From Candidatus Aenigmatarchaeota archaeon (lineage in GTDB: Archaea; Aenigmatarchaeota; Aenigmatarchaeia; CG10238-14; SpSt-28): a stretch of DNA of 53,876 nucleotides. Each line of letters starts with the position of its first letter. Position 1 is the first letter of the stretch. The stretch is from positions 1-53,876 of the forward strand of contig JAVYKI010000001.1 of the NCBI GenBank assembly GCA_038742305.1, written 5' to 3'. Position numbers and translations under genes: made by a program. The notes under the pieces are model-generated. The model was not told the DNA's origin. It worked only from the letters and a program-made list of their open reading frames with translations, and searched no databases. This document shows, piece by piece, positions 6,780 through 26,963 of this stretch.

Positions 6780-8051
6780 TTACTCATTTTTCTTTTTACT
6801 TAAATATTTCTTCAAAGCATAGCTCAAAGGATTTCTTATTAGCCTACAAAATTCATCTGGCATGCAAACTCCATAATCTTTATAAAAAACTGGATGGTCA
6901 CAATTAGGAGGTAAAAGTTCTCTATTTTGTCTTAAATGCCATCTAAATTGAGTTCTTATTATTCCTTCTCTTAAAGGTGGTTTATTTCTTTTATTCCATT
7001 CTTCCAAAATTTTTTCAATTTCTTCCATAGTATAGCCAACGTTCCTTAAAAAAGTTATTAAAACAAAAATGCTCCTGTTTCTACCATCTTGCAATCCAGT
7101 CAAAATATTTTTTATGCAAGGAGGAAAATATTCTTCGGGAATTTTAGCAATTTTTCTTTTTCTAATTTCTTCTTTCATTTCCTTTATTTCAACTTCTATT
7201 CCTTTTCTCTCTATCCAATCAATTGCTTGATAAACTAAAATTTCTGCATCATTTTTAAACTTTTTAATCTTAATAACTTCTTTTACTTCATTAGGATTAG
7301 CAAAAGATTTTTTAAAGTTTAAAATTTCTTTATCATCTATTGGCAAACTTACTAAATAAGTTTTTTCGTTTAAAGAATATGGCATTCTAAATAAGTGTCT
7401 TAATCCAAAAACATCTATGTTAACAACTTTAAACGGGTCCAATTTATTTTCTGAATAAATTTCTGAAATTTGCTTTTTTACTCTTTCTGCAATTTCTTTA
7501 GGATTTCCAATAATTTCTATTAAATTTTTTCTTAGCTCTTCTTCTGTTTCATGTTTTATATATTCTATTAAACTTCTAGAAATTTCTAAATATTGTTTTG
7601 CAACATTTCTATTTCCAATTTTTTCTGGAAAACTCTCGAAAAAAATTATTATGTGAAAGCTATCTCCACCAGTAAATTTAACTAAATAACTTTTTACTCC
7701 ATAGTTTTTTATTGTTTGAATTAAGCATTTTGTTGCAATTTTAGCAATTTCAAAGTCTTTAACATCAACATCTATAACTAAATCCCACCCGATTCTCAGA
7801 TTATCAAATTCTTCTTTAAGCATTCCAGCACTTAATAACATAGGATTTTCAAATCTTTCTGCTGTGCAATGAAAAGCTATCGCACCTTCTTCAACTTTAG
7901 AAATTACATCAGCGCTACTCAATAATACATCTGGCCTTTCTCCATATTTTCCGTCTTTGTATACACTTACAACTTCTCTGTTTTTACCGAATTCTACTAA
8001 AAATTCTTGAATTTCTTTTCTAGAATAATATTCTTTTACTATGTTTAACAT
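6780..8051 (-). CDS. DNA primase, PriS catalytic domain fused to a PriL-type Fe-S C-terminal domain
   Basis: The N-terminal part has DLVIDVDV (catalytic DxD) and FTGGDSFHIIIF. The C-terminal ~120 aa has PPCIKNIL...PPNCDHP...YGVCMPDEFC, the four-Cys pattern of the PriL C-terminal domain. Confidence 0.85.
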   Translation of the reverse strand: MLNIVKEYYSRKEIQEFLVEFGKNREVVSVYKDGKYGERPDVLLSSADVISKVEEGAIAFHCTAERFENPMLLSAGMLKEEFDNLRIGWDLVIDVDVKDFEIAKIATKCLIQTIKNYGVKSYLVKFTGGDSFHIIIFFESFPEKIGNRNVAKQYLEISRSLIEYIKHETEEELRKNLIEIIGNPKEIAERVKKQISEIYSENKLDPFKVVNIDVFGLRHLFRMPYSLNEKTYLVSLPIDDKEILNFKKSFANPNEVKEVIKIKKFKNDAEILVYQAIDWIERKGIEVEIKEMKEEIRKRKIAKIPEEYFPPCIKNILTGLQDGRNRSIFVLITFLRNVGYTMEEIEKILEEWNKRNKPPLREGIIRTQFRWHLRQNRELLPPNCDHPVFYKDYGVCMPDEFCRLIRNPLSYALKKYLSKKKNE

Positions 8052-8084: not shown

Positions 8085-9587
8085 TTGTATATGAAAATAT
8101 TAGAAGAAGTACTTTACTTTGACTTCCAAATATTGCCTGAAAACGCTGAAAAATTTGTATATGCATCTGCCCTAATTACTAGAAAAGATGAGAGTTTAAA
8201 AGAACTAATAGAAAAAATAATTGATGAAAAAAGTATTGAAAATTTTATTAAGACATCCATAGAGGCTGGTCATGCCAGCGTTTCTACACATCCTATAGCT
8301 TGTGGAGAATTTTATGGAAGTAGAGTTTTAGATTACTATTTATCTTCTTCAACATGGGGTTCTAGTTATTTAATCTATTCACAAAGAGTAATAAGGCCTA
8401 GTAAAGAAGATATTTTAATACCAACTAAAATTGTTAATTCAGGTTATGAAAAAGAATTCTTAAAAACTTCTATTAATCAATTTGAAACTTATGAAAATTT
8501 GTTAGAAAGAGATAAGAGTTTTAGAAATTTAGAAAAGGCTAGAAGAGTTATAGGTTTTCAATTTCCAAGTAGAGGAAGTTTTGTACTAACTCTACAGGCT
8601 TTAGCCAATATAGTTAACGGAATAGATTATAAAGATAAATTTGTTCCTAATGAATTGAAAGTTTTGAAAAATAAAGTTATTGAAAAAAGCAAAAATAATA
8701 GATTGCTTTCTGCTATTTTGAACTCTCCAGGTAGTTTAAGAATAACAAGAGAAATTTTTTATAATCCTGAATACTCTTTTGTTTCTAAAATTGCTGAAAG
8801 AGAAAATTTTCCTGAATATATGATTTTAGAAGAAAAACTTCTCGATGAAAATTTATTATCTACTATTCTTGAAGATTTAGGAAAAAAGGAAGAAAAATAT
8901 AGAGATAAAATAATTAAAGAAATTGAAATTGGAAACTTTGAAAACGCAAAGAAATATTATAACGATTTTTCTCGAAAACTTGCATATGATATTCCGTTTT
9001 ATAATTTATATAGTGTTACAGTTTTGATAAAAATGAGCTTAGCAATGTTTAACGAATTTAAAAGACACAGAACAATAAAAATGATTCCAGAATCTATTTA
9101 TAATGCAGTCAAAAGAAGAGAGTTTTACGTACCTAAAGCTTATAAAGGTAAAGAAGAACTTGAAGACTATTACATAAACAGTTTAAATAATTCAGTAGAT
9201 TCTTATGAAAAACTTGTTGAAGATGGAGCTGAAATATCTGAAGCGATATATTTAGTTCCACAAGGTTTGCAAATTTATGTAATTGCTGATTTTGATTTAT
9301 CTCATCTCTTGTTACCATTCAATTTTTACAAAATAAGAAATTGTTTCACTGCAGAAGAAGAAATACAAAACTTTGCAAGAAAATTGCCAACAATTTTGAG
9401 AAGTAGCAAGTATAAAGTTATTAGCAAAGATTTAGTAGAAAAGCATATGATGTATAATGATGAAGTTAAATCAAAATGCCAATTAGGAATATGCCCAGAA
9501 AAAAATTATTGTGAAATAGTTTTTAAATTCAACAAAAAATATAACAAAGAAATTCATGAAAGATTGAGAAGAATTTATTTAATATAG
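8085..9587 (+). CDS. ThyX-like flavin-dependent thymidylate synthase family protein, double length
   Basis: IEAGHASVSTHP resembles the ThyX GHxSV block. FKRHRTIKMIPES fits the RHR-x7-S ThyX motif exactly. 500 aa versus about 220-250 aa for canonical ThyX. The likely true start is the ATG at 8091. Confidence 0.55.
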   Translation: MYMKILEEVLYFDFQILPENAEKFVYASALITRKDESLKELIEKIIDEKSIENFIKTSIEAGHASVSTHPIACGEFYGSRVLDYYLSSSTWGSSYLIYSQRVIRPSKEDILIPTKIVNSGYEKEFLKTSINQFETYENLLERDKSFRNLEKARRVIGFQFPSRGSFVLTLQALANIVNGIDYKDKFVPNELKVLKNKVIEKSKNNRLLSAILNSPGSLRITREIFYNPEYSFVSKIAERENFPEYMILEEKLLDENLLSTILEDLGKKEEKYRDKIIKEIEIGNFENAKKYYNDFSRKLAYDIPFYNLYSVTVLIKMSLAMFNEFKRHRTIKMIPESIYNAVKRREFYVPKAYKGKEELEDYYINSLNNSVDSYEKLVEDGAEISEAIYLVPQGLQIYVIADFDLSHLLLPFNFYKIRNCFTAEEEIQNFARKLPTILRSSKYKVISKDLVEKHMMYNDEVKSKCQLGICPEKNYCEIVFKFNKKYNKEIHERLRRIYLI

Positions 9588-9660: not shown

Positions 9661-10044
9661 ATGAGAGCTTTAACAACTTTAGAAATAGTAATAATACTAG
9701 TTATACTAATAGTAACTGCTCTTTTCATTTTGAGTTGGCTAGGAATAGGAACTAATCCTTTAGACTGGTTTAAGAAGGAGTCTATAAGGAATACTTTTTG
9801 TGGAGAAGTACTTTCTAGGGCTAATTGTCAAGTCCAAACTTATAAGTTTGATGAGTATCCTTTAAAAAGTGATGATACTTCAACAAGAATAAAATGTAAA
9901 GATATAGCAGGAAAATGTGTAGGTAAAAGTTCTGAAGATCAAGCAACTTTTGAAGAAATTTGCAACTATTTAGGATATACAGGTACAGGTTATAACTTTT
10001 TTAAAACGTGTCTAGAAAAGGCTTGTGGATGTAAATTTACTTAA
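9661..10044 (+). CDS. prepilin-like secreted Cys-rich protein
   Basis: The N-terminus MRA|LTTLEIVIILVILIV has a basic residue at -2, Ala at -1 and Glu at +5, followed by a hydrophobic helix (class III/type IV prepilin-like). Eight Cys lie in the remaining ~90 aa. Confidence 0.55.
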   Translation: MRALTTLEIVIILVILIVTALFILSWLGIGTNPLDWFKKESIRNTFCGEVLSRANCQVQTYKFDEYPLKSDDTSTRIKCKDIAGKCVGKSSEDQATFEEICNYLGYTGTGYNFFKTCLEKACGCKFT

Positions 10045-11204
10045 CATATATTAACATCTATACTCCTTTTATATTCTTCACTTTTTTCAAACTCTATTTC
10101 TATCAAAATTTTTAAAGTATTAAGCTTTTCAGAATAGTTTTTACAAATTTCTAATTCATTATAAATGCTACATAAGCTATAAGCTCTACTAGTTAATTCT
10201 TTAGAACATTCTGATTCATTCATATCTTTACAAATTCTGCTTATTAAGTTTCGAATTTCTTCACTTTTATTCAATTCTTGAATTTTATCCCTTTCTATTA
10301 CTTTTATATTTACTGGATTAAAAGAACAATATTTATCAAACCTTTTAGAATAAACTTTGCCGTTTACTAAAATATTTAAATCTAAATTACATTCTTGAGA
10401 CTCTATTTCTTCTCTTCTTTCTCCGAAAAAGCTTGAAACTATTAGCGTATAATTTAGAATTTTTGCTCTAAGACTTTTTATTTTTACATTTTCTCCTCTA
10501 AATTCAAAAGAAAGTTCTAAAGGTAATAAATTGTTATAGGGTGTCGGATTTATATATACATAAGTTTCGAAAGGAGCCGAAACACTTAACTTTTTTACAC
10601 TCTCTTTTTCTCCAATTTCTACTTCCAATATATCTTTAACTTTAGAAGAATAGGTAATTTTATTTTCTATTACTGGAGAATATACACAATAAAGATTTCT
10701 TTCTCTTCCATCAACTTTTATACTTTTTTTATCCAAATAATAACATCTGCAATCTTCTAAGCATACTCCATTAGAGCATGCTTTGTTTTTGGAGCATTCT
10801 AAAGGTTGAAAAATATTTTCTTCTTTTTCGCAAAAATTTAAACCAGAAATTTTAGAATTATCAAAAATATTATTGAAAGTTATATCATAGGATTTTGCTT
10901 TTTGGGGTTCTATACTATCTAAAGCTTTATAATTGGCTATTTCTATTTTTCCAATTTTCAAAACAGAAAATAAATCTATATTTACATTTTCCCCAAAATT
11001 ATTAGTAATTTCTGCTCTAAAAACATAGTTATCATTTTGTGCATCTAAAGTATAGTATCTAAAATATACATCTAAGGTTTGATATCTAAAAATTTTTGGA
11101 ATATTAATTATTTCGCTTACTTCAACTTTAGTAATTTCTTTAATTACTAGAAAAGCTATTACAGCTATTACAATCAAAATTATTAGTATAAGTAAAGCAT
11201 TCAT
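10041..11204 (-). CDS. N-terminally anchored Cys-rich extracellular protein, unknown family
   Basis: N-terminal helix MNALLILIILIVIAVIAFLVI. Cys clusters NFCEKEE..LECSKNKACSNGVCLEDCRCYY and a C-terminal Cys-rich region. Last gene of the coupled operon. Confidence 0.6.
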   Translation of the reverse strand: MNALLILIILIVIAVIAFLVIKEITKVEVSEIINIPKIFRYQTLDVYFRYYTLDAQNDNYVFRAEITNNFGENVNIDLFSVLKIGKIEIANYKALDSIEPQKAKSYDITFNNIFDNSKISGLNFCEKEENIFQPLECSKNKACSNGVCLEDCRCYYLDKKSIKVDGRERNLYCVYSPVIENKITYSSKVKDILEVEIGEKESVKKLSVSAPFETYVYINPTPYNNLLPLELSFEFRGENVKIKSLRAKILNYTLIVSSFFGERREEIESQECNLDLNILVNGKVYSKRFDKYCSFNPVNIKVIERDKIQELNKSEEIRNLISRICKDMNESECSKELTSRAYSLCSIYNELEICKNYSEKLNTLKILIEIEFEKSEEYKRSIDVNIC

Positions 11205-11548
11205 AATTTAACTTTATCAACTAAATGAAGTATTAAATCTATTCCAAAAATTTTTTCTATTGGCTCAGCAATTATTTCATATTCTATTTCGCTATTTTCT
11301 ATTTTTAGTATGTTAACTTTAAAATTTAAGTATTGGCCTTTTAATATAAAGCTTTGCTTTTCTGCTTTAACTTTTTCTTTAATTATATTTTTATAAATTT
11401 CTGCTTCGTTAATAATTCTTAAAACTTTAGAAGATAAATCGGATATTTCATGCTCTTTACTTAATAAAGATGCTGTTAAATAAAAAGCTGCTATAAAAAG
11501 TATAAAAGGTAAAAATATTAGAATTAAATTGGCTACTATCCCTTTCAT
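11201..11548 (-). CDS. prepilin-like small protein
   Basis: MKG|IVANLILIFLPFILFIAAF is a short class III-like leader. 115 aa. 4-nt overlaps with both neighbours. Confidence 0.5.
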   Translation of the reverse strand: MKGIVANLILIFLPFILFIAAFYLTASLLSKEHEISDLSSKVLRIINEAEIYKNIIKEKVKAEKQSFILKGQYLNFKVNILKIENSEIEYEIIAEPIEKIFGIDLILHLVDKVKL

Positions 11549-11919
11549 GTCTTAACTAAAAAGCTATATTCTTTAGAATTTATTAAAACTTTGCATTCAT
11601 AAACTTCTTCAAAACTTTTACCAAAAGAAATTTTATATTTTGGAAAAATTATTTCAAAATTATTAAAAAATCTTTTAAGTTCTTGCTCTATATCTTTTGC
11701 ACAATTTAAATTATTTTCATATATTTGCTCTATACAATTTTTGTGTTTGCTGATTAGTATTTGACAAAGAGAAATTGTATTAGAAGGTTTATATATTGGT
11801 TTAAAAGCAATTTCTATTTTTGCTTTTGGCAGGTTATCTAGAATGAAAAACAAAATTGAAAAAGCTATTATAAAAAAGATTATGTTAATAAATGCTGTTA
11901 TTATTTTTGGAACTAGCAT
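11545..11919 (-). CDS. small N-terminal-helix protein (pseudopilin-like architecture)
   Basis: MLVPKIITAFINIIFFIIAFSILFFIL followed by a ~95-aa soluble part. Translationally coupled. Confidence 0.45.
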   Translation of the reverse strand: MLVPKIITAFINIIFFIIAFSILFFILDNLPKAKIEIAFKPIYKPSNTISLCQILISKHKNCIEQIYENNLNCAKDIEQELKRFFNNFEIIFPKYKISFGKSFEEVYECKVLINSKEYSFLVKT

Positions 11920-12293
11920 ACCAAAAGCTTAGATGTTATTAGTTCATTCCCTTTTTTAACTAAAACAGCATAAGAATAAATACTTTTTCTACATCCAAAA
12001 TCTATTATTTCTTTTTCTATTATAAAAGAAAAACTCCTCTTTTTTTCTATACAAAATCTATTTTCTTTAATTTTTTGATAGTCAAAAATTCCTTTAGTAT
12101 TTTCTGCTAAAATGCATTTATCTCCTTTTAAAACTTCTGCAAAGTTTACTATTTCTCTTTCACTTTCATTAGAAATTATAGTAACTTTAAATTCTGAGTA
12201 AAGTATCCATATTCCGAAAACAAAAGAAATAACTATTATTAAAGTCAAAACATCTACCATAAATTCTGGAATTATTGAAATCTGTAACTTCAT
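11913..12293 (-). CDS. small N-terminal-helix protein (pseudopilin-like architecture)
   Basis: MKLQISIIPEFMVDVLTLIIVISFVFGIWIL followed by a ~95-aa soluble part. 7-nt and 4-nt overlaps with neighbours. Confidence 0.45.
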   Translation of the reverse strand: MKLQISIIPEFMVDVLTLIIVISFVFGIWILYSEFKVTIISNESEREIVNFAEVLKGDKCILAENTKGIFDYQKIKENRFCIEKKRSFSFIIEKEIIDFGCRKSIYSYAVLVKKGNELITSKLLVC

Positions 12294-12691
12294 GTTATAC
12301 TAATTTCATCGTTAACTTTACTAATAAAAATGTTGCAGATTAAATTTTCTATACATTCTAAACTAGTTTCTTTTAGTTTAATATAAGAAGGTTTAAAAAG
12401 TTTTGAAGCATAAAAATTTTTTTCTAGGCTAACTGTAACGTTTTCAGAATAAATGTTTATTTTCAAATTTTTTGGTGGCAACTTAATAATAAGCGAAACG
12501 TTATAGCTAGAAGAAAATATATTATTTAAAATTGAAGCTATTGTTTCTGCTGCAAGCTTAGATTCAAACCAACTCCTTTTTAAAAAGAAAAACAAAATTA
12601 TTTGGAAACCATAAATTAAAATTATTGATATAAACAACATTGAGAAAAAAAGAATTAAGTAAGTAATAAATGCTGAAGCTTTTAGGACCAT
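12290..12691 (-). CDS. prepilin-like small protein
   Basis: MVLKA|SAFITYLILFFSMLFISIILIY is a class III-like leader with Lys at -2 and Ala at -1. 133 aa. Confidence 0.5.
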   Translation of the reverse strand: MVLKASAFITYLILFFSMLFISIILIYGFQIILFFFLKRSWFESKLAAETIASILNNIFSSSYNVSLIIKLPPKNLKINIYSENVTVSLEKNFYASKLFKPSYIKLKETSLECIENLICNIFISKVNDEISIT

Positions 12692-15381
12692 TTCGCTAAT
12701 TCTGGCAAGTTTTTATAAACATATGGCCAAGACATTACCCCCTCTCTAAAAGTTAACATTCCTATTCCGAATAAATCAGCTATTAGTTCGCAATGGTCAA
12801 TCGCTGGACCTGCAGAACCTAATAAGCAAGCTTTTATTGCGCCTGCCGTTCCAGTACCTAGAGTTAAAACTGCGCAAACAGAAGCGATAATACATCTTCC
12901 AATAGTTTCTGAAGATTCTGAAGCAATATATGCATTAACATAATTTTCATAAGCATAGCAATAATTTGGATTTTTATTTTTATCTAGCAAAACTTCTACA
13001 AAAATTTTATTATCTTCTATGTATATTTGAGCTTTTCCGTAGCATGGACTAACTAAATAAAATCTAGGATCTTTAGCTACCCAACTATCTCTTTTTAATC
13101 TAACTTCTTCTATTCCAATTTCTTGACAACTTTTTGGCAATTCAAATTGTCTAACGCATGCACCTAACTGAGAGCAAATTTTTCCTTCTTCACATTCGGT
13201 TTGACAACCATATGGCATTTTTTGACCTTCATAGCCATAGTAAGAAAGTAGTTTATCCCAATAACTTGCACCTATAGGAGTATTTAAATCCAAATATCTA
13301 AAAATTGAATAACCAATTGCTCCTCTTCTAAAGAAAACTTGTAAATCTTCTTTTATTCTCAATTGTTTTCCATTAAGCAGGTTTACAAACATTTCAATTT
13401 CTTTTTTATCTTCTTGCTTAAAAATTTCAAAGAAATATTCTCTCAAAGCATCTTTAACTTCTTTTGGATTTGCTTTTGGGCCGAGCTTATCCAAAATATT
13501 TGCAAGCTTAGTATCTTTTTCTACAACTATTCCAAAGCTATGGGACATTTTATCTTTTAAGTTATTAAGTTTATTAATTATTTGATCTAAACTCATTCCG
13601 CTATACTTTTCGATTTTAGCAATAAGCTCTAGGTCTGTATTTTTTTTCTTGATTAATTCGTTAATAACTTCATCTGCGAAATCTTTAACAACTGTATTTG
13701 GAATTATCTTATTGTGCAAAAATGCTTTTTCTTCTAAAAGTGCTAAGTATTTCTTTATAGGTTCGGAAAAAGTTTGTTTTAATATTTTTGAAAAAGATTC
13801 TTCTGGATCGTAAATTACTTTTACAAGATTTCCATCAGCATCATATTCAAGCCTAAAATTTCCTAACCTTTCCAAAAGTTTATTAGTTTTTTGCTTGTAA
13901 TATTCTGCATAATTTTTGAAATCTTCAAAATATTCGTTTCCCTCATCTATATAAAGATTTCCGTTTTCAACAACTTTAAATCCTTTATTTATTAGAGCTG
14001 CTTCGCTTGGCTTATCTGCAATTTCTTCTGGCAACTTATCCAATACTCCTTTAACTTCTTCTAATTCAACTATTCCTTCAGAAAGTAATTCTAAAAATTC
14101 GTTCTCATTTAGCTTTTTTGTTATATAATTTATTTCAGAAGAAATCAAATCTAGCTCCGTATTAACAAAAAATGCCCTTATTCTATACTCTTCTTCATCC
14201 GGTAAATTTTTCAATAAATCTTTTATTTCGCCTACTTTTTTATTAATTTCTTCTAATTTTTCTTTTGCTTTTTGCCATTCTTTATTCTCTATAGCACTTC
14301 TATATTCATCCAAAAGATTATTAGCACTGTCTAATTTTTCAGTAACTTCTTGCTCTATATCACTTATATCTTTACTAAAAAGTTTTTCTTTAAAATACTT
14401 TAGTCTTAAGCTTATAGTATCTTTGGCATTTAAGAAAAATTCTTTAATTTCTCCTTTTACTTGATAATAGAGTTTATCTAATTTTCTTTTAAAATATGGC
14501 CACACCATTTCTTTAGAAATTATTTTAGTAACGTCAAGAAGTACTGCAGAAGATATAGATAAAGTTAAACATTGTTCTAAAGTCATATTTTGAGTAAATA
14601 AGCACACTAAGGTTAAAAATCCGGCTGCTTTACTAATCCAAATTACTTCTTCTTTTCCAGACTCAATATATTTTATTGTTATTTTTATTTTTTCTCCAAC
14701 TTTTGCTGCATAAATTTCTATTTTTTCCAGCTTTTTAACCAAAGTTTCAACTCCTTGCATTATTTCGTTTAATTCTTTTAAGTGTGGCTTTAGTTTATCT
14801 AATATCTCCTCTTTAATTCTTGTTGATAATTCCTGCCTAAACTTGAAAAATCCTTTTTCTAATAAGTTTCTCATATTTTTAGCACCTATTAAATCAAAAT
14901 TTAAGAAAAATGTATAAGTAGCTAAGGAAAATAGTAAATTAGAGCTCCAAGGCAGATCTTCTTGCCAAGGAATAAATACTGCAGCTAAAGTTCCTGCTAA
15001 GCCGGAAATTCCTTGCTCTGTAACATCTAAAATATCATACGGCGGCTCTGGAGGAAAAAATTCCCAATAAAACTTATAATAAGGGTCTCCAAAAATTTGA
15101 AGTGGAAGTTTTTCCTCTTCTAATTTTATCATTCTTTTAAATTCATCAAAAACGTTTGCAAAAGTTTTTTGGGGCAATTCTATATAAACTTCTTCAGGAT
15201 AATCTTTACTAGCTTTTCTATTACATGCAACATCTAAAGCACTATAAAATTTATTAAAGCTTCTTTCAACTATTCTATCGCTTTCATTATGTATTACAAA
15301 CCACCAAAAAAGAAAGCCAATTAATGCTGCAATTCCTACTCCAATAAAAAATCTTATACCAACTTCACTCAAATTTTTCAT
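12682..15381 (-). CDS. large membrane / coiled-coil / Cys-rich protein, unknown family
   Basis: 899 aa. N-terminal TM, further hydrophobic segments near residues 120-170 and 250-290, a long K/E-rich helical middle, a Cys-rich block (PYGCQTECEEGKICSQLGACV...) and a C-terminal hydrophobic Gly/Ala/Cys segment. First gene of the operon. Confidence 0.6.
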   Translation of the reverse strand: MKNLSEVGIRFFIGVGIAALIGFLFWWFVIHNESDRIVERSFNKFYSALDVACNRKASKDYPEEVYIELPQKTFANVFDEFKRMIKLEEEKLPLQIFGDPYYKFYWEFFPPEPPYDILDVTEQGISGLAGTLAAVFIPWQEDLPWSSNLLFSLATYTFFLNFDLIGAKNMRNLLEKGFFKFRQELSTRIKEEILDKLKPHLKELNEIMQGVETLVKKLEKIEIYAAKVGEKIKITIKYIESGKEEVIWISKAAGFLTLVCLFTQNMTLEQCLTLSISSAVLLDVTKIISKEMVWPYFKRKLDKLYYQVKGEIKEFFLNAKDTISLRLKYFKEKLFSKDISDIEQEVTEKLDSANNLLDEYRSAIENKEWQKAKEKLEEINKKVGEIKDLLKNLPDEEEYRIRAFFVNTELDLISSEINYITKKLNENEFLELLSEGIVELEEVKGVLDKLPEEIADKPSEAALINKGFKVVENGNLYIDEGNEYFEDFKNYAEYYKQKTNKLLERLGNFRLEYDADGNLVKVIYDPEESFSKILKQTFSEPIKKYLALLEEKAFLHNKIIPNTVVKDFADEVINELIKKKNTDLELIAKIEKYSGMSLDQIINKLNNLKDKMSHSFGIVVEKDTKLANILDKLGPKANPKEVKDALREYFFEIFKQEDKKEIEMFVNLLNGKQLRIKEDLQVFFRRGAIGYSIFRYLDLNTPIGASYWDKLLSYYGYEGQKMPYGCQTECEEGKICSQLGACVRQFELPKSCQEIGIEEVRLKRDSWVAKDPRFYLVSPCYGKAQIYIEDNKIFVEVLLDKNKNPNYCYAYENYVNAYIASESSETIGRCIIASVCAVLTLGTGTAGAIKACLLGSAGPAIDHCELIADLFGIGMLTFREGVMSWPYVYKNLPELAKWS

Positions 15382-15508
15382 AATTAATGATTATCAATAA
15401 ATATTAATAAAGAAAGCCAATTAATGCTGCAATTCCTACTCCAATAAAAAATCTTATACCAACTTCACTCAAATTTTTCATAATTAATGATTATCAATAA
15501 ATATTAAT
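15309..15508. repeat. perfect 100-bp tandem duplication (2 copies)
   Basis: 15309-15408 and 15409-15508 are identical base for base. Each unit holds the first 72 nt of the 899-aa gene, its ATG, and the 27 bp up to the FlaJ-like start codon. Confidence 0.95.
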
Positions 15509-17500
15509 ATGGATGTTAATAAAATTATTGAAGAATATGAAAAATCAAAAAAATTAAACTTTTATGAAAAGTTTTGCAACTTTTCTTATAACATTTTAAA
15601 GTTTAAACTTTCTCAAGAAGAATTGGAAAAATTTGAAGAAGTAAATAAATTTTGTAGGTTAAAAATTTATCCAGCTTCAAATTTTTCTGCTTCTATTCTT
15701 TTCTTTTTAATTTCCTTTTTCTTTTTAGTTTTCTTATCTTTCTTTATCCCATTTTCAATCCTTTTCTTTTTATTTACTCTTTTTACTTTTATTAGTTTTT
15801 TAATTTACTACTATCCTTTCTTACTAGCTAGAATAATAAGAAGCGTTTCTAGCTCAGAAATAATGCATGCAATAATTTACATGTCAATTTCTTTAAAACA
15901 AGTTCCAAACTTAGAAAGAGCAATAATTTTTACAGCTTCAAACTTGCATGGTTATGTTGGATTAGATTTTAAAGAATTAGCTTCAAAAATAGTATTTGGT
16001 CAAGAAAGTGCTAAAAGCGGATTAATGAAAATAATTGATAAATGGCAAAAAGAAGCTAAAGAGTTTGGAGAAGCTTTAAAAATTTTAATTTCTTATTCTG
16101 AAAATCCTTATTCAGATAAAATGTTAGAAGAAGCTGTAAGAATTGTTCATGAAGACACTTTTTCAAAATTAGAAAAATATTCTAGAAGCTTAAAGCTGCC
16201 TTCAACAATAATTTTAGGATTGGGAATTATTTTGCCTCTGCTTTCTTTAACAATTTTACCTTTATTCTCTATTTTCTTTCCTAGTATTCTTTCTTTTAAC
16301 GTTTTAATTATAATTTTTAATATTTTAATTCCAATACTTTTATTTTCTTTTATTTTAACTATTACTTCTTCTAGGCCATTAACTAGTTCTTATTTATTAA
16401 TAGAAGACCCATTTAAAATTAAAATTGGAAATTATAATTTAAATTTAATTTTAGTTTTATCTTTTATTTCTTTATTGCTTTTTCTTCCTCTCTTTTTAGA
16501 TTTTCTTAACTCTTCGAAAAATTATGAACTTTGTGCAGTATGGTTTTCTACAAAATTTTCAGAATTAAGAAAGCCTCAAGAATTAAATTTAAATAGAGAA
16601 GAATGTTTAGAAATATTGCAAAATACAAATTTCTTATCTTCTGCTTTTCCTTTAATACTTTTAATTTTGCCTTTTTCACTTTTAATTTTTAAAATAAGGA
16701 AAATTTTGTTTATAAGAGAAAGGACAGAAAAAATAGAAAAAGAGTTTAGTTCTGTTATATTCCAAATAGGTTACTATTTGAAATCTGGGAATACTTTAGA
16801 AACCGCAATATTTAAAGGAATTGAGAAATTCGAAAAGTTTGAAATTAGAAAGTTTTTTGAAAAAATTTTATCAAACTTGAGAGTTTACGGAAATTTAAAA
16901 GAAGCTATTTTTGGAGAAAAAGGAGCTATAAAAGATTATCCTTCAACTTTAATTAAAAGCTTTTTTGAAGTAATTGTAGAAACTTATAAAAGAGGTTATT
17001 ATTTTGCTGGAGAAGCCATGTTAAAACTTTCAAGCTTTTTGAATAGTTTGTATAAGCTACAAGATAAAATTGAAGAATTAATAAGTGATGTAGTAAGCAA
17101 TTTAAAATTTATTTCAGTTTTTTTAGTTCCAATAATTACTGGAGCTGGAATTTCATTAGCAATAATTCTTGTTTCAATACTAAATTCCATAGCATTAAAA
17201 TATTTAGAAATTCCTATTTCAAATGAAACAACAATTCCAATTTCTTTACCATTTATTTCTTTTTCTAATGTTGTTCCAATTTATTCTGGCTCTTTAGTTT
17301 TTTCTTTAGGACTTTTTGTGATAGAAATTGTATTAATTTCTAGTTTCTTAATAGTTAGTTTGGAAAAAGGTTTTGAAAAGTATTACTTTATTTCTTCTTC
17401 TATAAAAAACGTTTTAATTGCAATAATATTTTACTTATTAACAATACTTTTCTCTTCTTTCCTAATTCAACCTTTAGTTTCTACTATAACTCAATTTTAG
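15509..17500 (+). CDS. FlaJ/TadC/PilC-like type IV filament platform membrane protein
   Basis: 663 aa. Two helical cytoplasmic blocks with the T2SS-F domain pattern (SEIMHAIIYMSISLKQVPNLERAIIFTASNL... and EFSSVIFQIGYYLKSGNTLETAIFKGIEK...LRVYGNLKEAIF), each followed by TM clusters. Confidence 0.65.
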   Translation: MDVNKIIEEYEKSKKLNFYEKFCNFSYNILKFKLSQEELEKFEEVNKFCRLKIYPASNFSASILFFLISFFFLVFLSFFIPFSILFFLFTLFTFISFLIYYYPFLLARIIRSVSSSEIMHAIIYMSISLKQVPNLERAIIFTASNLHGYVGLDFKELASKIVFGQESAKSGLMKIIDKWQKEAKEFGEALKILISYSENPYSDKMLEEAVRIVHEDTFSKLEKYSRSLKLPSTIILGLGIILPLLSLTILPLFSIFFPSILSFNVLIIIFNILIPILLFSFILTITSSRPLTSSYLLIEDPFKIKIGNYNLNLILVLSFISLLLFLPLFLDFLNSSKNYELCAVWFSTKFSELRKPQELNLNREECLEILQNTNFLSSAFPLILLILPFSLLIFKIRKILFIRERTEKIEKEFSSVIFQIGYYLKSGNTLETAIFKGIEKFEKFEIRKFFEKILSNLRVYGNLKEAIFGEKGAIKDYPSTLIKSFFEVIVETYKRGYYFAGEAMLKLSSFLNSLYKLQDKIEELISDVVSNLKFISVFLVPIITGAGISLAIILVSILNSIALKYLEIPISNETTIPISLPFISFSNVVPIYSGSLVFSLGLFVIEIVLISSFLIVSLEKGFEKYYFISSSIKNVLIAIIFYLLTILFSSFLIQPLVSTITQF

Positions 17501-17616
17501 CTAAAAATTTTTATTAATTCGCTTGCAAAATCTTTCAAATATAAAGCAAAAAATATTGCAAAAGCTATTAAAATTATTAAAACTATTATTGCAATTATTA
17601 GCTTAACTTTTTCCAC
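17497..17616 (-). CDS. micro-protein 7 of array, single TM (GTG start)
   Basis: (M)EKVKLIIAIIVLIILIAFAIFFALYLKDFASELIKIFS*, 39 aa. Overlaps the stop of the preceding micro-ORF. The GTG start makes it the least certain member. Confidence 0.4.
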   Translation of the reverse strand: MEKVKLIIAIIVLIILIAFAIFFALYLKDFASELIKIFS

Positions 17617-17749
17617 TCCAAGGCTTAGGTATTTTTATATTTTTTATTATCTCCCAAACTTTTCCTGAAGAAAAAACTAAGTAAACAACTATTATAATTA
17701 TTATCAAAAGAATTATTCCGAAAACTAGCCAAAGTTCGTCTTCTATCAT
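17603..17749 (-). CDS. micro-protein 6 of array, single TM
   Basis: MIEDELWLVFGIILLIIIIIVVYLVFSSGKVWEIIKNIKIPKPWSGKS*, 48 aa. ATGA overlap with the upstream micro-ORF. Confidence 0.55.
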   Translation of the reverse strand: MIEDELWLVFGIILLIIIIIVVYLVFSSGKVWEIIKNIKIPKPWSGKS

Positions 17750-17907
17750 TTTTTAATTCCAATTATTTCTAAAAACTTTGATAAATTGAAAATATCGCCT
17801 ATACTTCTTATTCCTTGCTCTTTGCTCAAGTTTATTATTACTAAAATTATTATAAAGACTAATACTGCAATTATTATTACAATAATTAGCCAAATTGTTT
17901 GCTCCAT
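17746..17907 (-). CDS. micro-protein 5 of array, single TM
   Basis: MEQTIWLIIVIIIAVLVFIIILVIINLSKEQGIRSIGDIFNLSKFLEIIGIKK*, 53 aa. Confidence 0.55.
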   Translation of the reverse strand: MEQTIWLIIVIIIAVLVFIIILVIINLSKEQGIRSIGDIFNLSKFLEIIGIKK

Positions 17908-17913
17908 AATATA

Positions 17914-18093
17914 TTAAACTGAAATAAAAACATTACAAAATATTCCTAACGGTCCAAAAATTAAGTTGCAAATTTCTGCTAGTGCTTTTCCAGTTTCTGG
18001 ATTTAAAATTGAAAAAATTATTAAAACAAAAAACATTAAGCCTATTAGCACTAAAATTATAACTATAAAGTTTCTTATAGAAAACTCTATCAT
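17914..18093 (-). CDS. micro-protein 4 of array, single TM
   Basis: MIEFSIRNFIVIILVLIGLMFFVLIIFSILNPETGKALAEICNLIFGPLGIFCNVFISV*. The track ORF 17914..18111 uses a TTG start. The internal ATG at 18093 gives an ATGA overlap with the upstream micro-ORF. Confidence 0.6.
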   Translation of the reverse strand: MIEFSIRNFIVIILVLIGLMFFVLIIFSILNPETGKALAEICNLIFGPLGIFCNVFISV

Positions 18094-18269
18094 ATCATAA
18101 AAACTTCGCAAACTTTTGGATTAGCAAGTATTTTTGCTACAGTTAAAAGGCATATTTCTTTTGCTACTATTGCAAACCTTTCTGGAAAAATTAAACCTAG
18201 GAAAACTATTAAAATAGTTGAAAAAATTAATATTGTAAGAATTATAATTACCAAAAGCTTTACTTCCAT
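18090..18269 (-). CDS. micro-protein 3 of array, single TM
   Basis: MEVKLLVIIILTILIFSTILIVFLGLIFPERFAIVAKEICLLTVAKILANPKVCEVFMI*, 59 aa. Confidence 0.55.
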   Translation of the reverse strand: MEVKLLVIIILTILIFSTILIVFLGLIFPERFAIVAKEICLLTVAKILANPKVCEVFMI

Positions 18270-18412
18270 TATTTAAAAATTTTTTCTATAAAGTTTGCAA
18301 TATATTCTGGAAGTTTTGAAAAATCGAAAGAACTAAAAAGTAAAATAACAATTACTGCTACTATGATTATAAAAAATATTATTACGTAAACTAATTCAAA
18401 CGGCAATTCCAT
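18269..18412 (-). CDS. micro-protein 2 of array, single TM
   Basis: MELPFELVYVIIFFIIIVAVIVILLFSSFDFSKLPEYIANFIEKIFK*, 47 aa. Its stop shares one base with the next ATG. Confidence 0.55.
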   Translation of the reverse strand: MELPFELVYVIIFFIIIVAVIVILLFSSFDFSKLPEYIANFIEKIFK

Positions 18413-18529
18413 TTAACTAATATGCAAAGATAAAATTTTAAAATAGTAAATAGCTATTAGGATTAAGATTATTAGGATTAAGATTCCTAAGCCAATGAAA
18501 ATTGCATTTTTAATTGTGCTTTGCTCCAT
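18413..18529 (-). CDS. micro-protein 1 of array, single TM
   Basis: MEQSTIKNAIFIGLGILILIILILIAIYYFKILSLHIS*, 38 aa. Its stop directly abuts the next ATG. Confidence 0.5.
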   Translation of the reverse strand: MEQSTIKNAIFIGLGILILIILILIAIYYFKILSLHIS

Positions 18530-18551: not shown

Positions 18552-18647
18552 GGGGCCGTAGTCTAGCTAGGCAGGACGGCGGGCTCCAGAGCGAGCTCTG
18601 AAAAATGAAGAAACCCGCTAACCTGGGTTCAAATCCCAGCGGCCCCA
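18552..18647 (+). tRNA. trnW: tRNA-Trp (anticodon CCA) with a 23-nt intron at the canonical 37/38 position
   Basis: Acceptor GGGGCCG/CGGCCCC plus discriminator A. D arm GTCT-AGCTAGGCA-GGAC. Anticodon stem GCGGG/CCCGC with loop CT-CCA-G[intron]A. T arm CTGGG-TTCAAAT-CCCAG. No encoded CCA. Confidence 0.9.
18590..18612 (+). other. tRNA-Trp intron
   Basis: agcgagctctgaaaaatgaagaa lies between position 37 (G18589) and A38 (18613); the boundary is ambiguous by one A. Intron CUCUG (18596-18600) can pair with CAGAG, which spans the anticodon and the 5' splice site. Confidence 0.75.
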
Positions 18648-19688: not shown

Positions 19689-19982
19689 ATGCAAAACTTA
19701 CTTTTCGAATTTATTGCTCCGCTAATACTTTTAACTTTAATAGTTTATGCTTTGCTTAGAAAAATAAAATTTTCAGATAATGATAGAATAAACTTAGCAA
19801 TTGCTTTTACACTATCTTTTATTGGAACTTATTCTCTTTATAATTTGCAGCTTTCCCAATTTTTAATTTCTTCGGCAGGAATTACAATAGCAATAATATT
19901 TATTTCTTTAGTAATAATAGCTTCTGCGAGAAAAGGTTATAAAAAAGTTGAAGAGCAATTTAAGAAAGAAGAGAAAAAATGA
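19689..19982 (+). CDS. small membrane protein
   Basis: 97 aa with about 3 hydrophobic segments and a basic C-terminal tail. Confidence 0.5.
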   Translation: MQNLLFEFIAPLILLTLIVYALLRKIKFSDNDRINLAIAFTLSFIGTYSLYNLQLSQFLISSAGITIAIIFISLVIIASARKGYKKVEEQFKKEEKK

Positions 19983-20218
19983 ATGATCTAATTTTAATAG
20001 CTTTCTTCTTTTTGTCTTTACTTATTTTTTACGAACTGATCAAAAAGCTAAAGGTTTTTGATAAAAAAATAAACTTTGTAATTTCGATTTCCCTTGCATT
20101 TTTAGTAATTTATTTTTTAAGTTTGGGAAATTTAAATATTTATAATTTAGGTTATTTTTTTCTCGGATTTTTAATTTTAATATTTGGTATTATAATATAT
20201 TTTGCTTTAAAGCAATAA
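19979..20218 (+). CDS. small membrane protein
   Basis: 79 aa with 3 hydrophobic segments. ATGA overlap with the preceding gene. Confidence 0.5.
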   Translation: MNDLILIAFFFLSLLIFYELIKKLKVFDKKINFVISISLAFLVIYFLSLGNLNIYNLGYFFLGFLILIFGIIIYFALKQ

Positions 20219-25748: not shown

Positions 25749-26963
25749 CTATTCTTTTTTCAAATTCTTTAATACTTTTGCTACATCCCTTATTAAAAAT
25801 CTTACATTTTCCCTTAATTCATAAACTTCTTTGAAATCAATTTTTTCAAGCTTTCCAGTTTTTAATAAAGTATATAGCTCGTTTACTCTGTTAAGAACGT
25901 TCAAATAATCTTTTGGAATTAAGTTTTTATCAATAAACTCTTTTTTAAACTTTTCAAAAAATGTAGATTCATCAAATTGTACATTTAGCTCTTTTAATGC
26001 CCTTTTCATTAGTTCATCAGAAACTTCTTTAGTTTTAGAAATTATTCCAGCAACTTTCTTAATTTCTAGCACACTTAATAAAGCAATCATTTTTCTAACA
26101 AACTTTTCAGCTCTTTCTATCCACAAATCAACTGTATTTCCATCTATTTCTCTAATTTCTTGATGCTCAATCTTTTTTCTCAATTCTACTATTTCATTGA
26201 TCCATTGAGCATACTCTTCTTCAACTATTCCAGTATCTACTAATGCCTTTTTAAATTCTTGATATAAAACTGAAGGTGCTGGTGGATGCTTTCCTAAAAA
26301 CATTAAAACTGCTTGAGCAGAATTAACTATTGCATAAAAGCAATCTTCTGCAATTTGAAGAAGTTTTACGCTTTTTGCTCTTATAATTTTTTTAGGAGCT
26401 TCTTCTAAGTATTTTTCTATTGCTTCTCTTGTTGTTGGAATTTTTCCTAGTAACCATAATTTTTGCAAAGGTTTAAAAAAGCCTATATCGTAAACTGCTA
26501 GTCCATCCTTTATAAAATTGTAAACTATTGGATGGCCTTGTCTTACATAATCCCAAAATTCTGTTAAAAGATATGCTGGTTGCAAAGAAATTAAATTTAC
26601 AATTTTTTCTATTCCATCTTCTTTTATTTTAATTTTTGCTTCATCAATTTCTTTTGCAATTTTTTCAAACTCTTCATCAAGCTTTTCTATATATTCTTCT
26701 GGAACTGGTTCTAATTTTGTATTACATTTTGGACAATTAGAATATGCATTTTCAACATCTACTATTAATTCTTTACAATTTGGACACCATTTCATTGAAG
26801 TATCATCTATTATTATTAAAATATCTATATCGCTCCTTTCTTTTATTTCTCCTCTAACAGTTGAACCAAAAACTACAACAGATTTAACAATATTTCCAAA
26901 TTTTTCTATTAGCTTCCTTGCAAATTTTCTAGCTATTTCAATTCTTTGTTCTCTAGTTAACAT
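25749..26963 (-). CDS. nucleotidyltransferase fused to a helical HEPN/KNTase-C-like domain, with a zinc-ribbon insert
   Basis: VVVFGSTVRGEIKERSDIDILIIID NTase motif. Insert CPNCKEL...CPKCNTK directly after it. Paralogous to the upstream 267-aa gene, with an extra C-terminal extension. Confidence 0.65.
   Translation of the reverse strand: MLTREQRIEIARKFARKLIEKFGNIVKSVVVFGSTVRGEIKERSDIDILIIIDDTSMKWCPNCKELIVDVENAYSNCPKCNTKLEPVPEEYIEKLDEEFEKIAKEIDEAKIKIKEDGIEKIVNLISLQPAYLLTEFWDYVRQGHPIVYNFIKDGLAVYDIGFFKPLQKLWLLGKIPTTREAIEKYLEEAPKKIIRAKSVKLLQIAEDCFYAIVNSAQAVLMFLGKHPPAPSVLYQEFKKALVDTGIVEEEYAQWINEIVELRKKIEHQEIREIDGNTVDLWIERAEKFVRKMIALLSVLEIKKVAGIISKTKEVSDELMKRALKELNVQFDESTFFEKFKKEFIDKNLIPKDYLNVLNRVNELYTLLKTGKLEKIDFKEVYELRENVRFLIRDVAKVLKNLKKE

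Follow-up and report, generated by a model that had tools for sequence, protein, structure and literature searches.

Archaeal type IV pilus loci were reportedly classified by Makarova et al. in 2016, in a scheme that includes a 'System 2' type. The System 2 class is represented by, for example, PilB3-PilC3 of Haloferax volcanii with its PilA pilins, and Epd/Tad systems have two separate TadB/TadC-like platform genes and a dedicated peptidase encoded within the cluster (10.64898/2026.04.22.720090). Divergent pilus islands of 'dark-matter' pilins are already known in DPANN archaea in general terms: type IV pilus islands of unassignable pilins have been reported (PMC6393860), as have FlaI/FlaJ-like genes and type IV pili in MAGs of thermal Aenigmarchaeota (PMC8407114). 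Here, we analysed a 53.9-kb stretch of an Aenigmatarchaeota contig (the window); by the names of the nearest relatives of its proteins, the organism is an Aenigmatarchaeota-type DPANN archaeon. An earlier note had read part of it as a type IV filament-like surface locus. The family of the platform protein, the conservation of the gene block, and the ATPase linkage and class III signals of orthologs support this reading. Positions 9661-18529 probably encode the platform and subunits of a type IV filament (TFF, type IV pilus-like) system that is specific to Aenigmatarchaeota.

Gene organization of the locus

An ORF listing of the window contained all eight ORFs that the earlier note had described, with the same coordinates, strands and lengths. 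The polytopic protein w663 (663 aa) is encoded on the plus strand at 15509..17500. Divergent to it, a six-gene operon occupies the minus strand between 15381 and 10041 and encodes w899 (12682..15381, 899 aa), w133 (12290..12691, 133 aa), w126 (11913..12293, 126 aa), w124 (11545..11919, 124 aa), w115 (11201..11548, 115 aa) and w387 (10041..11204, 387 aa). Counted from w387, the internal overlaps are 4, 4, 7, 4 and 10 nt. The convergent plus-strand gene w127 (9661..10044, 127 aa) overlaps w387 by 4 nt. According to the translations, every product begins with a hydrophobic helix, and the short leaders of w115 (MKGIVANL), w133 (MVLKASAFI) and w127 (MRALTTLE) read as noted earlier. The reported Cys-richness also held: Cys makes up 6.3% of w127, 3.6% of w387 and 1.6% of w899, against a background of 0.72% in 41 other window ORFs. 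The seven proteins that could not be placed earlier have no family in Pfam or NCBIfam, the sole exception being a sub-threshold T2SSF match on w663. The small families had no significant match to any pilin family in Pfam, NCBIfam or the PDB.

The 127-bp divergent spacer between w899 and w663 holds a 100-bp tandem duplication (15306..15505, no strand assigned), whose copies, at 15306-15405 and 15406-15505, are 99% identical and comprise the first 24 codons of w899 and a 27-bp divergent spacer. It is either a strain variant or an assembly artefact; L005 and L006, assembled independently from near-identical strains, have a spacer of 27 bp and no duplication.

Positions 17497-18529, which lie within the range of the earlier note but were not described there, hold seven tightly packed mini-ORFs on the minus strand.

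These mini-ORFs belong to the filament system. The first gene of the array, m38 (18413..18529, 38 aa, dN/dS 0.08-0.12), encodes a single helix, and its orthologs directly follow the platform gene in collinear loci (see below). Next is m47 (18269..18412, 47 aa, dN/dS 0.04-0.27), which is leaderless here, with its initiator Met at the predicted +1 position; collinear-layout orthologs begin with MKG followed by ISL. The product of m59a (18090..18269, 59 aa, dN/dS 0.05-0.49) has two Cys residues that are invariant in the alignment, C40 and C54, and an MKG/MKS leader in collinear-layout orthologs that is absent in this lineage. Its paralog, m59b (17914..18093, 59 aa), starts at a conserved ATG at 18093, in agreement with gene calls on L005, and this codon overlaps the stop of m59a as ATGA; the ORF program had begun m59b at a TTG further upstream, giving 65 aa. 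The remaining genes are m53 (17746..17907, 53 aa, MEQTIW..., dN/dS 0.05-0.27), which is 68% identical in L002; m48 (17603..17749, 48 aa, dN/dS 0.12-0.20), whose N-terminus (MIEDELW) is acidic and whose C-terminal KIPKPW motif is conserved; and m39 (17497..17616, 39 aa, GTG start, dN/dS ~0.5). Of the seven, m39 is the most doubtful gene and occurred in window-type loci alone.

The platform protein and its genomic context

The earlier note had described w663 as T2SS-F-like with two helical blocks, and family matches, an internal repeat and a structural model bear this out. Against Pfam T2SSF, w663 itself scored below the cut-off (E = 0.0044; 17.4 bits, cut-off 25.2), with residues 123-248 aligned to profile positions 3-123 of 125; in its family, 16 of 22 members matched the profile (PF00482), the best with an E-value of 3e-9. 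Residues ~108-222 and ~403-533 are homologous to each other (hhalign E = 2.4e-5), and the topology comprises this pair of cytoplasmic helical domains together with some 9-10 TM helices. An AF2 model (pLDDT 83.4, pTM 0.79) matched the EpsF cytoplasmic domain in Foldseek with a TM-score of 0.72-0.78 and a probability of 0.97-0.98; the E-values of these matches were poor (2.2-2.7) because only ~18% of the w663 query aligns. Overall, w663 is a divergent T2SS-F/FlaJ/PilC-type platform protein, of the superfamily that also includes TadC.

Conservation of the gene block is strong, the same genes occurring in the same order in relatives of both layouts. The window-type layout, which is rearranged and ATPase-less, was found in six complete and two partial loci; the platform proteins of the six complete loci are only 46-68% identical to w663. 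At least eight further loci have a collinear 16-gene layout directly after a T2SS-E ATPase gene. Their order, as read in L001, L012-L015, L019 and L031, is ATPase, platform, m38, m47, m59, m53, m48, the x83 pilin, w899, w133, w126, w124, w115 and w127, followed by a convergent w387-like gene. The locus genes are conserved one-for-one in relatives, the seven mini-genes included, m39 in window-type loci alone. The small genes are under purifying selection (dN/dS 0.04-0.38, apart from the higher values of m59a and m39 above), and the platform gene is the best-conserved gene of the locus (dN/dS 0.16-0.21 in window-layout pairs).

No T2SS-E/FlaI ATPase and no A24 peptidase is encoded in the window itself, an absence noted earlier and confirmed here by Pfam, tblastn and a motif scan. 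Pfam searches detected neither in 40 of the 55 window ORFs of at least 90 aa, a set that includes all window ORFs of at least 150 aa except one frame-overlapping ORF. In tblastn searches of the window with the ATPase and peptidase sequences of relatives, the best E-value was only 0.057, and a GxGD-type motif occurs in no polytopic protein of the window. Similarly, none of the eight loci with the window-type layout contains an ATPase or A24 peptidase. By contrast, w663 orthologs lie directly downstream of a T2SS-E ATPase (720-760 aa) in ~55 of 80 related loci, counted among ATPase loci from Aenigmatarchaeota species genomes, and L003, the locus of a distant platform homolog, has both a prepilin peptidase and an ATPase within 10 kb. 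The best PDB matches of the relatives' ATPase were AfGspE2 (1.4e-25), CpaF (4e-21) and FlaI (1.4e-17). Against the NCBIfam FlaI model it scored 120 bits, where the equivalog cut-off is 550, and the TadA model scored higher. As judged from these matches, the ATPase is of the archaeal/Tad secretion-ATPase type. The machine is conserved across Aenigmatarchaeota, and its ATPase usually adjoins the platform but is separated from it in this lineage, so the locus is a form, particular to this lineage, of a machine of known type. Other Aenigmatarchaeota also have ATPase genes that lie apart from any platform gene, so separate encoding need not mean loss.

Class III signals and the surface proteins

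Canonical class III signals, that is, MKG followed by a hydrophobic helix, begin the collinear-locus orthologs of w133 (MKGS), w126 (MKGQ), w115 (MKGI), w387 and two minis, m47 (MKGI) and m59 (MKG/MKS); for the w387-like proteins, the start is MKGD and was found in one of seven collinear-layout orthologs. The same type of start occurs in distant relatives of w899 and in other members of the w127/x83 family, many of which begin MKGL or MKGI. As most of the collinear orthologs carry canonical class III signals, these proteins are read as pilins or pilin-like subunits. The leader has been lost from several subunits of the window lineage: KGQ has become KLQ, and minis begin at the predicted +1.

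The minor-pilin-like w133 is conserved in both layouts (dN/dS 0.12-0.31). It begins with MVLKA before S in the window, versus MKG before S, T or M in 9/9 orthologs outside the window-type layout; in the four window-layout loci the residues at -2/-1 are KA, KL, KS and KL. The pilin-like w126 starts with MKL before Q in this lineage, versus MKG before Q....PE in collinear-layout orthologs. KLQ was present in 4/4 window-layout loci, and KGQ in seven of nine other sequences, namely all six with the full collinear layout and L061. This accessory family is the one most widely found beside ATPase-platform pairs, and relatives occur in numerous distant loci, where they are often 240-310 aa long and start K-G. 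The small bitopic protein w124, a pilin-like or assembly subunit, has an N-terminal hydrophobic helix and is conserved in both layouts (dN/dS 0.04-0.30); its alignment contains a class III motif in no lineage. The minor-pilin-like w115, also conserved in both layouts (dN/dS 0.15-0.38), keeps the motif, MKG before I. In its alignment, M1 and K2 are invariant and position 3 is G in 7/7 collinear-layout members shown; the four window-layout members have G (the window), G (L008), A (L007) and S (L002).

The Cys-rich w127 contains eight Cys residues, a C-terminal C..CxC motif and a class III-like signal, MRA before LTTLE, with Glu at +5. Its L002 ortholog begins MRG before LTTIE. The residues at -2/-1 are RA or RG in the window and L002, and they are KG in L007 and KL in L008. 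The w127/x83 family consists of small Cys-rich proteins, many starting MKG or MRG before a hydrophobic helix, and the w127 gene holds a conserved position at the cluster end in both layouts. The best natural PDB matches of w127 were weak (E 0.02-0.7) and were to pilins and archaeal filament subunits over the N-terminal helix only. Overall, w127 belongs to a Cys-rich small-pilin family and is a candidate filament subunit. The large pilin-like surface protein w387, a candidate adhesin or tip subunit, has an N-terminal helix and 14 Cys residues. It is homologous (hhalign probability 97.3%, E = 2.2e-11) to the 335-aa protein whose gene converges on the pilin gene in collinear loci, and some of its orthologs begin MKG, MSKG or MMRG before a helix. 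The large component w899 starts with a hydrophobic helix, continues in a long helical middle part and ends in a conserved Cys-rich module, with 11 of its 14 Cys in the last 175 residues. In a profile search, 28 representative clusters matched at E<1e-30, and a broader group of w899-like proteins (~840-880 aa) shares N- and C-terminal motifs and the MKG-then-helix start. The AF2 model of w899 was poor (pLDDT 59.8), with no Foldseek match below E = 0.2; w899 is a candidate large pilin-like, adhesin or tip component. Neither w387 nor w899 has a Pfam family.

Proposed function and comparison with described systems

In the proposed mechanism, w663 would be the polytopic inner-membrane platform and would dock a hexameric T2SS-E-type ATPase, assumed to be encoded elsewhere in the genome. 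ATP hydrolysis would drive extraction of helix-anchored subunits from the membrane and their stacking into a surface filament. We infer that such a filament is assembled with the Cys-rich small pilin w127, the head-less mini-proteins, or both, as its main components; a minor, priming role would fall to the pilin-like subunits w133, w126, w124 and w115, and w899 and w387 would be tip or adhesin components. The ATPase and a prepilin peptidase would act in trans, and the filament may serve adhesion or cell-cell (host) contact, the latter as the earlier note suggested for a probable episymbiont. Weighing against this reading are the absence of an ATPase and an A24 peptidase from the window and from all eight window-type loci, the K-L of w126 and the +1 starts of minis in place of a cleavable class III motif, the lack of pilin-family matches for the small proteins, the poor w899 model and the poor E-values of the EpsF matches.

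In a rival reading, most subunits in the window lineage would be made either without a class III leader, with Met at +1, or with an uncleavable K-L. They could belong to a TFF that has partly dispensed with maturation, the subunits entering a filament or a membrane-anchored pseudopilus unprocessed and independently of a peptidase. We consider this unlikely, if worth keeping in view: the leader changes coincide with ATPase unlinking, and they comprise, besides those of w126 and w133, the starts of m47 and m59, at or after the predicted +1 in 4/4 window-layout loci versus MKG/MKS in 7/7 collinear orthologs. However, w115 keeps MKG in the window and L008, and w127 has RA/RG in the window and L002, with KG in L007, so a peptidase substrate apparently still exists. 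Moreover, m38, m53 and m48 carry no KG leader in either layout, which raises the possibility that some minis never were pilins. The same erosion of class III motifs in w126, w133, m47 and m59 could mark a degenerating relic that has lost its ATPase, or the linkage to it, and forms no filament, its products being membrane-anchored surface proteins or in the course of loss. The lack of an ATPase or peptidase near any window-layout locus is in keeping with decay, as is dN/dS, which is a little higher among window-layout pairs (0.2-0.5) than among collinear ones (0.04-0.19). We nevertheless judge decay improbable: dN/dS remains well below 1, six lineages with platform proteins at 46-68% identity retain every one of the 15 genes, intact and in synteny, and a platform would be pointless without an ATPase, yet its gene is the best conserved. 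The unlinked ATPase genes of other Aenigmatarchaeota also weigh against it.

That the locus specifies an archaellum for motility, with w663 as FlaJ and the small proteins as FlaF/FlaG/archaellin-like components, is highly improbable. In size and topology w663 is FlaJ-like, it is paired in relatives with a FlaI-related ATPase that matches the NCBIfam FlaI model, and a published Aenigmarchaeota MAG annotation lists FlaI, FlaJ and FlaG (PMC8407114). Such survey annotations of FlaI/FlaJ are probably these genes. However, the ATPase scores well short of the FlaI equivalog cut-off, and its PDB matches to AfGspE2 and CpaF rank above that to FlaI. Neither the window nor 77 accessory proteins yielded a family match to archaellin, whose absence had been noted earlier, or to FlaH, FlaF/G or FlaCDE/X, and the subunits, at 38-133 aa and Cys-rich, are unlike archaellins.

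As a type IV filament system, the locus resembles System 2 in its single fused two-domain platform gene, the long N-terminal extension of the ATPase (a protein of 720-760 aa in the window's relatives), its many pilins, some of them pilin-like without class III motifs, and its extra small membrane and large adhesin-like proteins. It differs in that its pilins and accessory proteins have no detectable similarity to any described family, in its phylum, which is DPANN rather than Euryarchaeota, and in the unlinked ATPase and several lost leaders of the window lineage. The Methanococcus Epd and bacterial Tad (Flp) pili share very short, head-less pilins (the minis are 38-59 aa, and Flp/EpdE-type pilins are similarly small) and an ATPase that, in the window's relatives, comes almost as near to CpaF as to AfGspE2 and has its highest score against the TadA model. 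Unlike those systems, this locus has one fused platform gene, no peptidase nearby and, in this lineage, minis without a leader. The bacterial T4aP minor-pilin/PilY1 priming complex and the T2SS GspH-I-J-K pseudopilus tip have no sequence or profile similarity to the locus, whose four small families have no detectable homology to one another. The likeness is an analogy of operon logic only: a large, non-pilin-sized surface protein, w899, followed by four small pilin-like proteins, w133-w126-w124-w115.

Organization of the locus and its platform protein

The locus (9661–18529) opens with the gene of a 127-aa protein (w127; 9661–10044, + strand). This gene is convergent with a string of six genes on the − strand, encoding proteins of 387, 115, 124, 126, 133 and 899 aa (15381 down to 10041; proteins are named below by length, as w387 and so on). 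The gene of a 663-aa protein (w663; 15509–17500, + strand) is divergent from the string. An ORF listing reproduced these eight ORFs with the positions, strands and lengths of the earlier note, and the junctions of the string, described there as overlapping, measured 4–10 nt of overlap. The N-termini that it quoted were correct, a hydrophobic helix opening every product. Its observation of Cys-rich proteins was also borne out: Cys accounts for 6.3%, 3.6% and 1.6% of the 127-, 387- and 899-aa proteins, respectively, versus a background of 0.72% in the 41 other ORFs of the window.

Absent from the earlier note are seven back-to-back mini-ORFs (39, 48, 53, 59, 59, 47 and 38 aa) on the − strand, between the end of the w663 gene and 18529. 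Each encodes approximately a single hydrophobic helix plus short tails, and the mini-ORFs are kept one-for-one among relatives. In moderately diverged pairs, dN/dS was 0.04–0.16 for the minis and 0.07–0.10 for the platform gene. The minis are under purifying selection with the exception of the 39-aa ORF, whose dN/dS was ∼0.5 and whose status as a gene is doubtful. On the other strand, 22 bp away from the first mini-gene, begins a 96-nt tRNA gene (18552–18647, + strand; Rfam, 54.4 bits). It is probably intron-bearing because ARAGORN called no normal anticodon. The promoters of the tRNA gene and the first mini-gene must overlap coding sequence.

Two copies of a 100-bp segment, 99% identical to each other, stand in tandem at 15306–15505; this duplication takes in the spacer and codons 1–24 of the 899-aa gene. 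The divergent spacer, which holds this duplication, is 127 bp in the window; in two independent assemblies of near-identical strains, a 27-bp spacer lacks it (AATTAATGATTATCAATAAATATTAAT). The duplication reflects either strain variation or an artefact of assembly.

The earlier note had likened w663 to T2SS-F proteins. According to Pfam, w663 alone matched PF00482 (T2SSF) below threshold (17.4 bits, E = 0.0044; gathering score, 25.2), with positions 3–123 of the 125 in the profile aligned. Yet 16 of the 22 detectable homologs that make up the w663 family matched T2SSF at E < 0.1, the best at 3e-9, and two homologs carried precomputed PF00482 annotation. Further, when the family alignment was divided, its N-terminal half matched its C-terminal half over 111 columns (hhalign probability 76%, E = 2.4e-5). 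The halves are therefore homologous, as in the two-domain plan that platform proteins have. An AF2 model built on the family alignment (pLDDT 83.4, pTM 0.79) was all-helical with ∼9–10 TM segments. In Foldseek searches, the sole specific PDB matches of this model were structures of the Vibrio EpsF cytoplasmic domain (2vmb, 2vma and 3c1q; probability 0.97–0.98, target-normalised TM 0.72–0.78, rmsd 2.6–2.9 Å over 113–119 columns), with E-values of merely 2.2–2.7 because the match is local. The protein has an EpsF/GspF-like cytoplasmic fold and a pair of homologous helical domains in the cytoplasm, with TM helices after each. Searching PDB sequences with the platform-family profile returned nothing beyond GspF at E = 1.7. 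Overall, the family matches, the homologous halves and the model bear out the assignment: w663 is a T2SS-F/FlaJ/PilC-type platform protein.

Linkage to a secretion ATPase in relatives

The window (G+C ∼26%) is of archaeal origin: it encodes aEF-2, SecY, ThyX, Alba, eRF1, FtsY and RFC, and the closest relatives of its proteins are from Candidatus Aenigmatarchaeota MAGs, many of them from hot springs. A 423-aa protein (6780–8051, − strand) carries primase small- and large-subunit domains as a fused PriS-PriL; the two are separate genes in the relative L007. The ThyX (Thy1) protein (8085–9587, + strand), at 500 aa, is approximately double the normal size and was matched in two stretches; it may be duplicated internally or extended at its N-terminus. 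An intein that carries a LAGLIDADG homing-endonuclease domain splits a 1260-aa CDC48/VCP-type AAA ATPase (31770–35552, + strand). Two neighbouring nucleotidyltransferase genes (NTP_transf_2/Pol-beta-like; 404 and 267 aa) lie at 25749–27756 (− strand). A gene for an FkbM-type methyltransferase is clustered with three glycosyltransferase genes (GT4, GT4 and GT2) at 36681–40737; this cluster may act in glycosylating pilins or the surface. Surface-type proteins with a DUF2341 domain are encoded at 49908–50945 (− strand) and, in the relative L002, at 17246–17885, where the pilus locus lies a few kb away.

No T2SS-E-family ATPase gene lies beside w663 in the window. The window as a whole yielded neither a PilB/FlaI-type ATPase nor an A24 prepilin peptidase (PibD/FlaK/EppA), as the earlier note had stated. 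To locate the ATPase gene of the window's own genome, the contig was extended by exact-protein look-ups, which added ∼3.3 kb at one end and nothing at the other. A metagenome scan was run with an alignment of 12 closer sequences. In one metagenomic relative (L001; 39% identity), the w663 ortholog overlaps the end of the gene of a 721-aa T2SS-E ATPase. The platform gene is followed, on the same strand, by orthologs of five minis, an 83-aa Cys-rich protein (x83) and orthologs of the 899-, 133-, 126-, 124-, 115- and 127-aa proteins. The cluster ends with a convergent gene for a 335-aa protein homologous to the 387-aa protein of the window (hhalign probability 97.3%). This collinear layout recurs in L012–L015, L019, L020 and L031 and, in part, in L011, L016, L017, L022, L028 and L061. 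A genome-wide scan returned 539 relatives of the ATPase. The best 80 of the 539 were nearly all from Aenigmatarchaeota, and in about 55 of these 80 loci the platform gene is immediately downstream of the ATPase gene.

The layout of the window recurs in L002, L007, L008, L104 and L105 and, in part, in L009 and L010. In this layout, the string of six genes converges on the pilin gene and diverges from the platform gene, and the minis are inverted. Platform proteins of window-layout loci share 46–68% identity with w663. The ATPase gene was not found in the available flanks of the seven other window-layout loci. It is kept beside the platform gene by collinear relatives and missing near the window-layout loci, so the gap results from rearrangement in one clade. 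The gene block, whose conservation next to flaJ-like genes had been posed as a question, is thus strongly conserved, in two layouts. These data show that the orphan-looking locus of the window is the subunit half of a conserved Aenigmatarchaeota machine.

In other Aenigmatarchaeota, ATPase genes occur with a four-gene upstream module but without a platform gene nearby; split encoding is therefore not unique to the window-type clade. The genomes of these ATPase-only loci are not close relatives of the window (37–41% identity in SecY and 46–47% in FtsZ). The four-gene module is divergent from the pilus ATPase gene (L001, 5690–7835; also L048, L063, L066, L072, L077 and L078) and is conserved in linked and unlinked ATPase loci. 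It encodes two ∼180-aa proteins with 5 TM segments and the motif FLLPFxL..Y.LLRKSKIFG, a third protein of 207–238 aa (GFSEpEIIDILRKEGYSP) and a ∼131-aa coiled-coil protein. Pfam recognised none of the four, which are probably additional components of the machine. In the window, two small membrane proteins encoded beside Alba (19689–19982 and 19979–20218, + strand) weakly resemble the ATPase-linked 5-TM family (tblastn E 3e-6 to 7e-5).

The identity of the ATPase also bears on whether the locus could encode an archaellum. The best PDB matches of the relatives' ATPase were Archaeoglobus GspE2 (1.4e-25), CpaF (4e-21) and FlaI (1.4e-17). In NCBIfam it scored 126 bits against TadA and 120 bits against FlaI, whose cut-off is 550; it is therefore no FlaI equivalog. 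Consistent with the earlier note, which saw no archaellin in the window, neither Pfam nor NCBIfam matched an archaellin, FlaH, FlaF or FlaG in the window or among 77 accessory proteins of relatives. We therefore rejected the archaellum reading.

Pilin-like accessory proteins and loss of their leaders

The earlier note had called the proteins of the locus unassignable, and for the accessory families this holds, as none had a significant Pfam, NCBIfam or PDB-sequence match. In Pfam, the 77 accessory proteins of relatives yielded singleton, chance-level matches alone, and the minis matched nothing. Profiles of the small-protein families had no significant match among PDB sequences; the best natural PDB matches of the pilin-family profile were pilin and flagellin N-termini, which are weak and driven by the N-terminal helix (E 0.02–0.7). 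A homolog search with w126 returned two proteins. With a 15-sequence alignment as input, AF2 modelled w899 poorly (pLDDT 59.8, pTM 0.39), and the model matched generic helical bundles alone in the PDB (Foldseek, E > 0.2).

We next considered N-termini, taking as a class III signal a short charged leader with G/A at −1 followed by ∼20 hydrophobic residues. In the window, class III-type leaders are present in w127 (MRA↓L), w115 (MKG↓I) and w133 (..KA↓S), where the arrow marks the end of the leader. The motif is absent from w126 (KL↓Q), w124, w387, w899 and the minis. In the collinear loci, the canonical archaeal class III signal, M-K-G then ∼20 hydrophobic residues, begins the orthologs of w133 (MKGS), w126 (MKGQ....PE) and w115 (MKGI). 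In these loci it also opens the orthologs of the 47-aa mini (m47; MKGISL) and of the 59-aa minis (m59; MKG or MKS) and one w387-like ortholog (L013; MKGD). Few of these proteins pass a strict FlaFind-type regex, which is uninformative here because it is too stringent for AT-rich, divergent leaders.

The 127- and 83-aa proteins constitute one small Cys-rich family with the pattern C...C...CxC. Many members start with MKGL/MKGI or MRGL, and distant loci carry two to four tandem copies. The MRA↓LTTLE of w127 corresponds to MRG↓LTTIE in the L002 ortholog, each with G/A at −1 and Glu at +5. When the 899-aa family profile was compared with 1.84 billion representatives, 28 clusters were found at E < 1e-30. 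The search also returned a wider set of ∼840–880-aa proteins, which share the N- and C-terminal motifs of w899 and start with MKG then a helix. Judged from these sequences, the accessory proteins appear to be pilin-like. That the small proteins are paralogous minor pilins was unsupported: in profile–profile comparison, their families share nothing beyond the MKG start.

Leaders differ between the two layouts: several subunits of the window-type clade have lost theirs. At the leader position, w126 has K-L-Q in 4/4 window-layout loci versus K-G-Q in 7/9 other sequences. Similarly, w133 has KA, KL, KS and KL in the window-layout loci, whereas KG occurs in 9/9 others. In m47 and both m59 paralogs, the initiator Met aligns at or after the predicted +1 of the collinear-layout proteins. 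Among the window-layout loci, w115 has MKG in two of four and MKA or MKS in the other two, and w127 has RA, RG and KG in three of four; these two proteins plausibly keep a cleavage site. Leader loss goes together with the unlinking of the ATPase. The subunits may have become partly independent of processing by the prepilin peptidase; alternatively, they may now remain membrane-anchored. In the most far-reaching reading, the genes encode the mature form, with Met at +1, or an uncleavable K-L, and most of the filament is assembled without peptidase processing, the platform's ATPase acting in trans. We consider this unlikely. If true, it would amount to streamlined TFF maturation in an organism with a reduced genome. 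That one lineage has systematically lost class III leaders provides a natural experiment, which asks if pilins can do without processing.

A proposed filament machine and its relation to known systems

We consider it likely that the locus encodes a type IV filament (TFF) system. The data presented here demonstrate the platform family, the conserved link, in relatives, between every component and a secretion ATPase, the class III signals on orthologs and purifying selection. Based on established TFF knowledge, an ATPase encoded elsewhere would drive the platform, such that helix-anchored subunits are pulled from the membrane and polymerised. The shaft would consist of the Cys-rich pilin and/or the head-less minis, the four ∼125-aa proteins would be minor or priming subunits, and the two large Cys-rich proteins would be tip or adhesin components.

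DPANN archaea seem to rely for the most part on direct physical contact with their hosts; to our knowledge, this holds for all cultivated ones, and hardly any of the molecules that make the contact are known. For a DPANN archaeon, it is plausible that the machine would serve contact with hosts or surfaces. The conserved gene set is now defined as an ATPase, a platform, five to seven minis, Cys-rich small pilins, four minor pilin-like proteins and two large surface proteins. Standard annotation labels it ‘hypothetical’, and it appears to be largely confined to Aenigmatarchaeota-type DPANN MAGs. It provides concrete filament, tip and adhesin candidates for hot-spring Aenigmatarchaeota. We know of no earlier description of the component families, of the 16-gene architecture and its conservation, of the split layout or of the loss of leaders; the type of machine is a familiar one.

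Divergent type IV pilus islands, with unrecognisable pilins beside FlaI/TadC-like genes, have been described in DPANN genomes (PMC6393860), and FlaI/FlaJ-like genes and type IV pili are listed for thermal Aenigmarchaeota MAGs (PMC8407114). The named archaeal TFF subsystems, which are arCOG-based, are Systems 1, 2 and 4A–4I. Archaeal TFF systems were classified in a 2026 preprint, in which the Flp/Epd pilins are a precedent for head-less subunits (10.64898/2026.04.22.720090). By its described architecture, ‘System 2’ of that classification is the closest to the machine proposed here: it has an ATPase with a long N-terminus, a single platform gene, many pilins and large adhesin-like proteins (10.64898/2026.04.22.720090). 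The two systems are also alike in that some of their pilins lack class III motifs.
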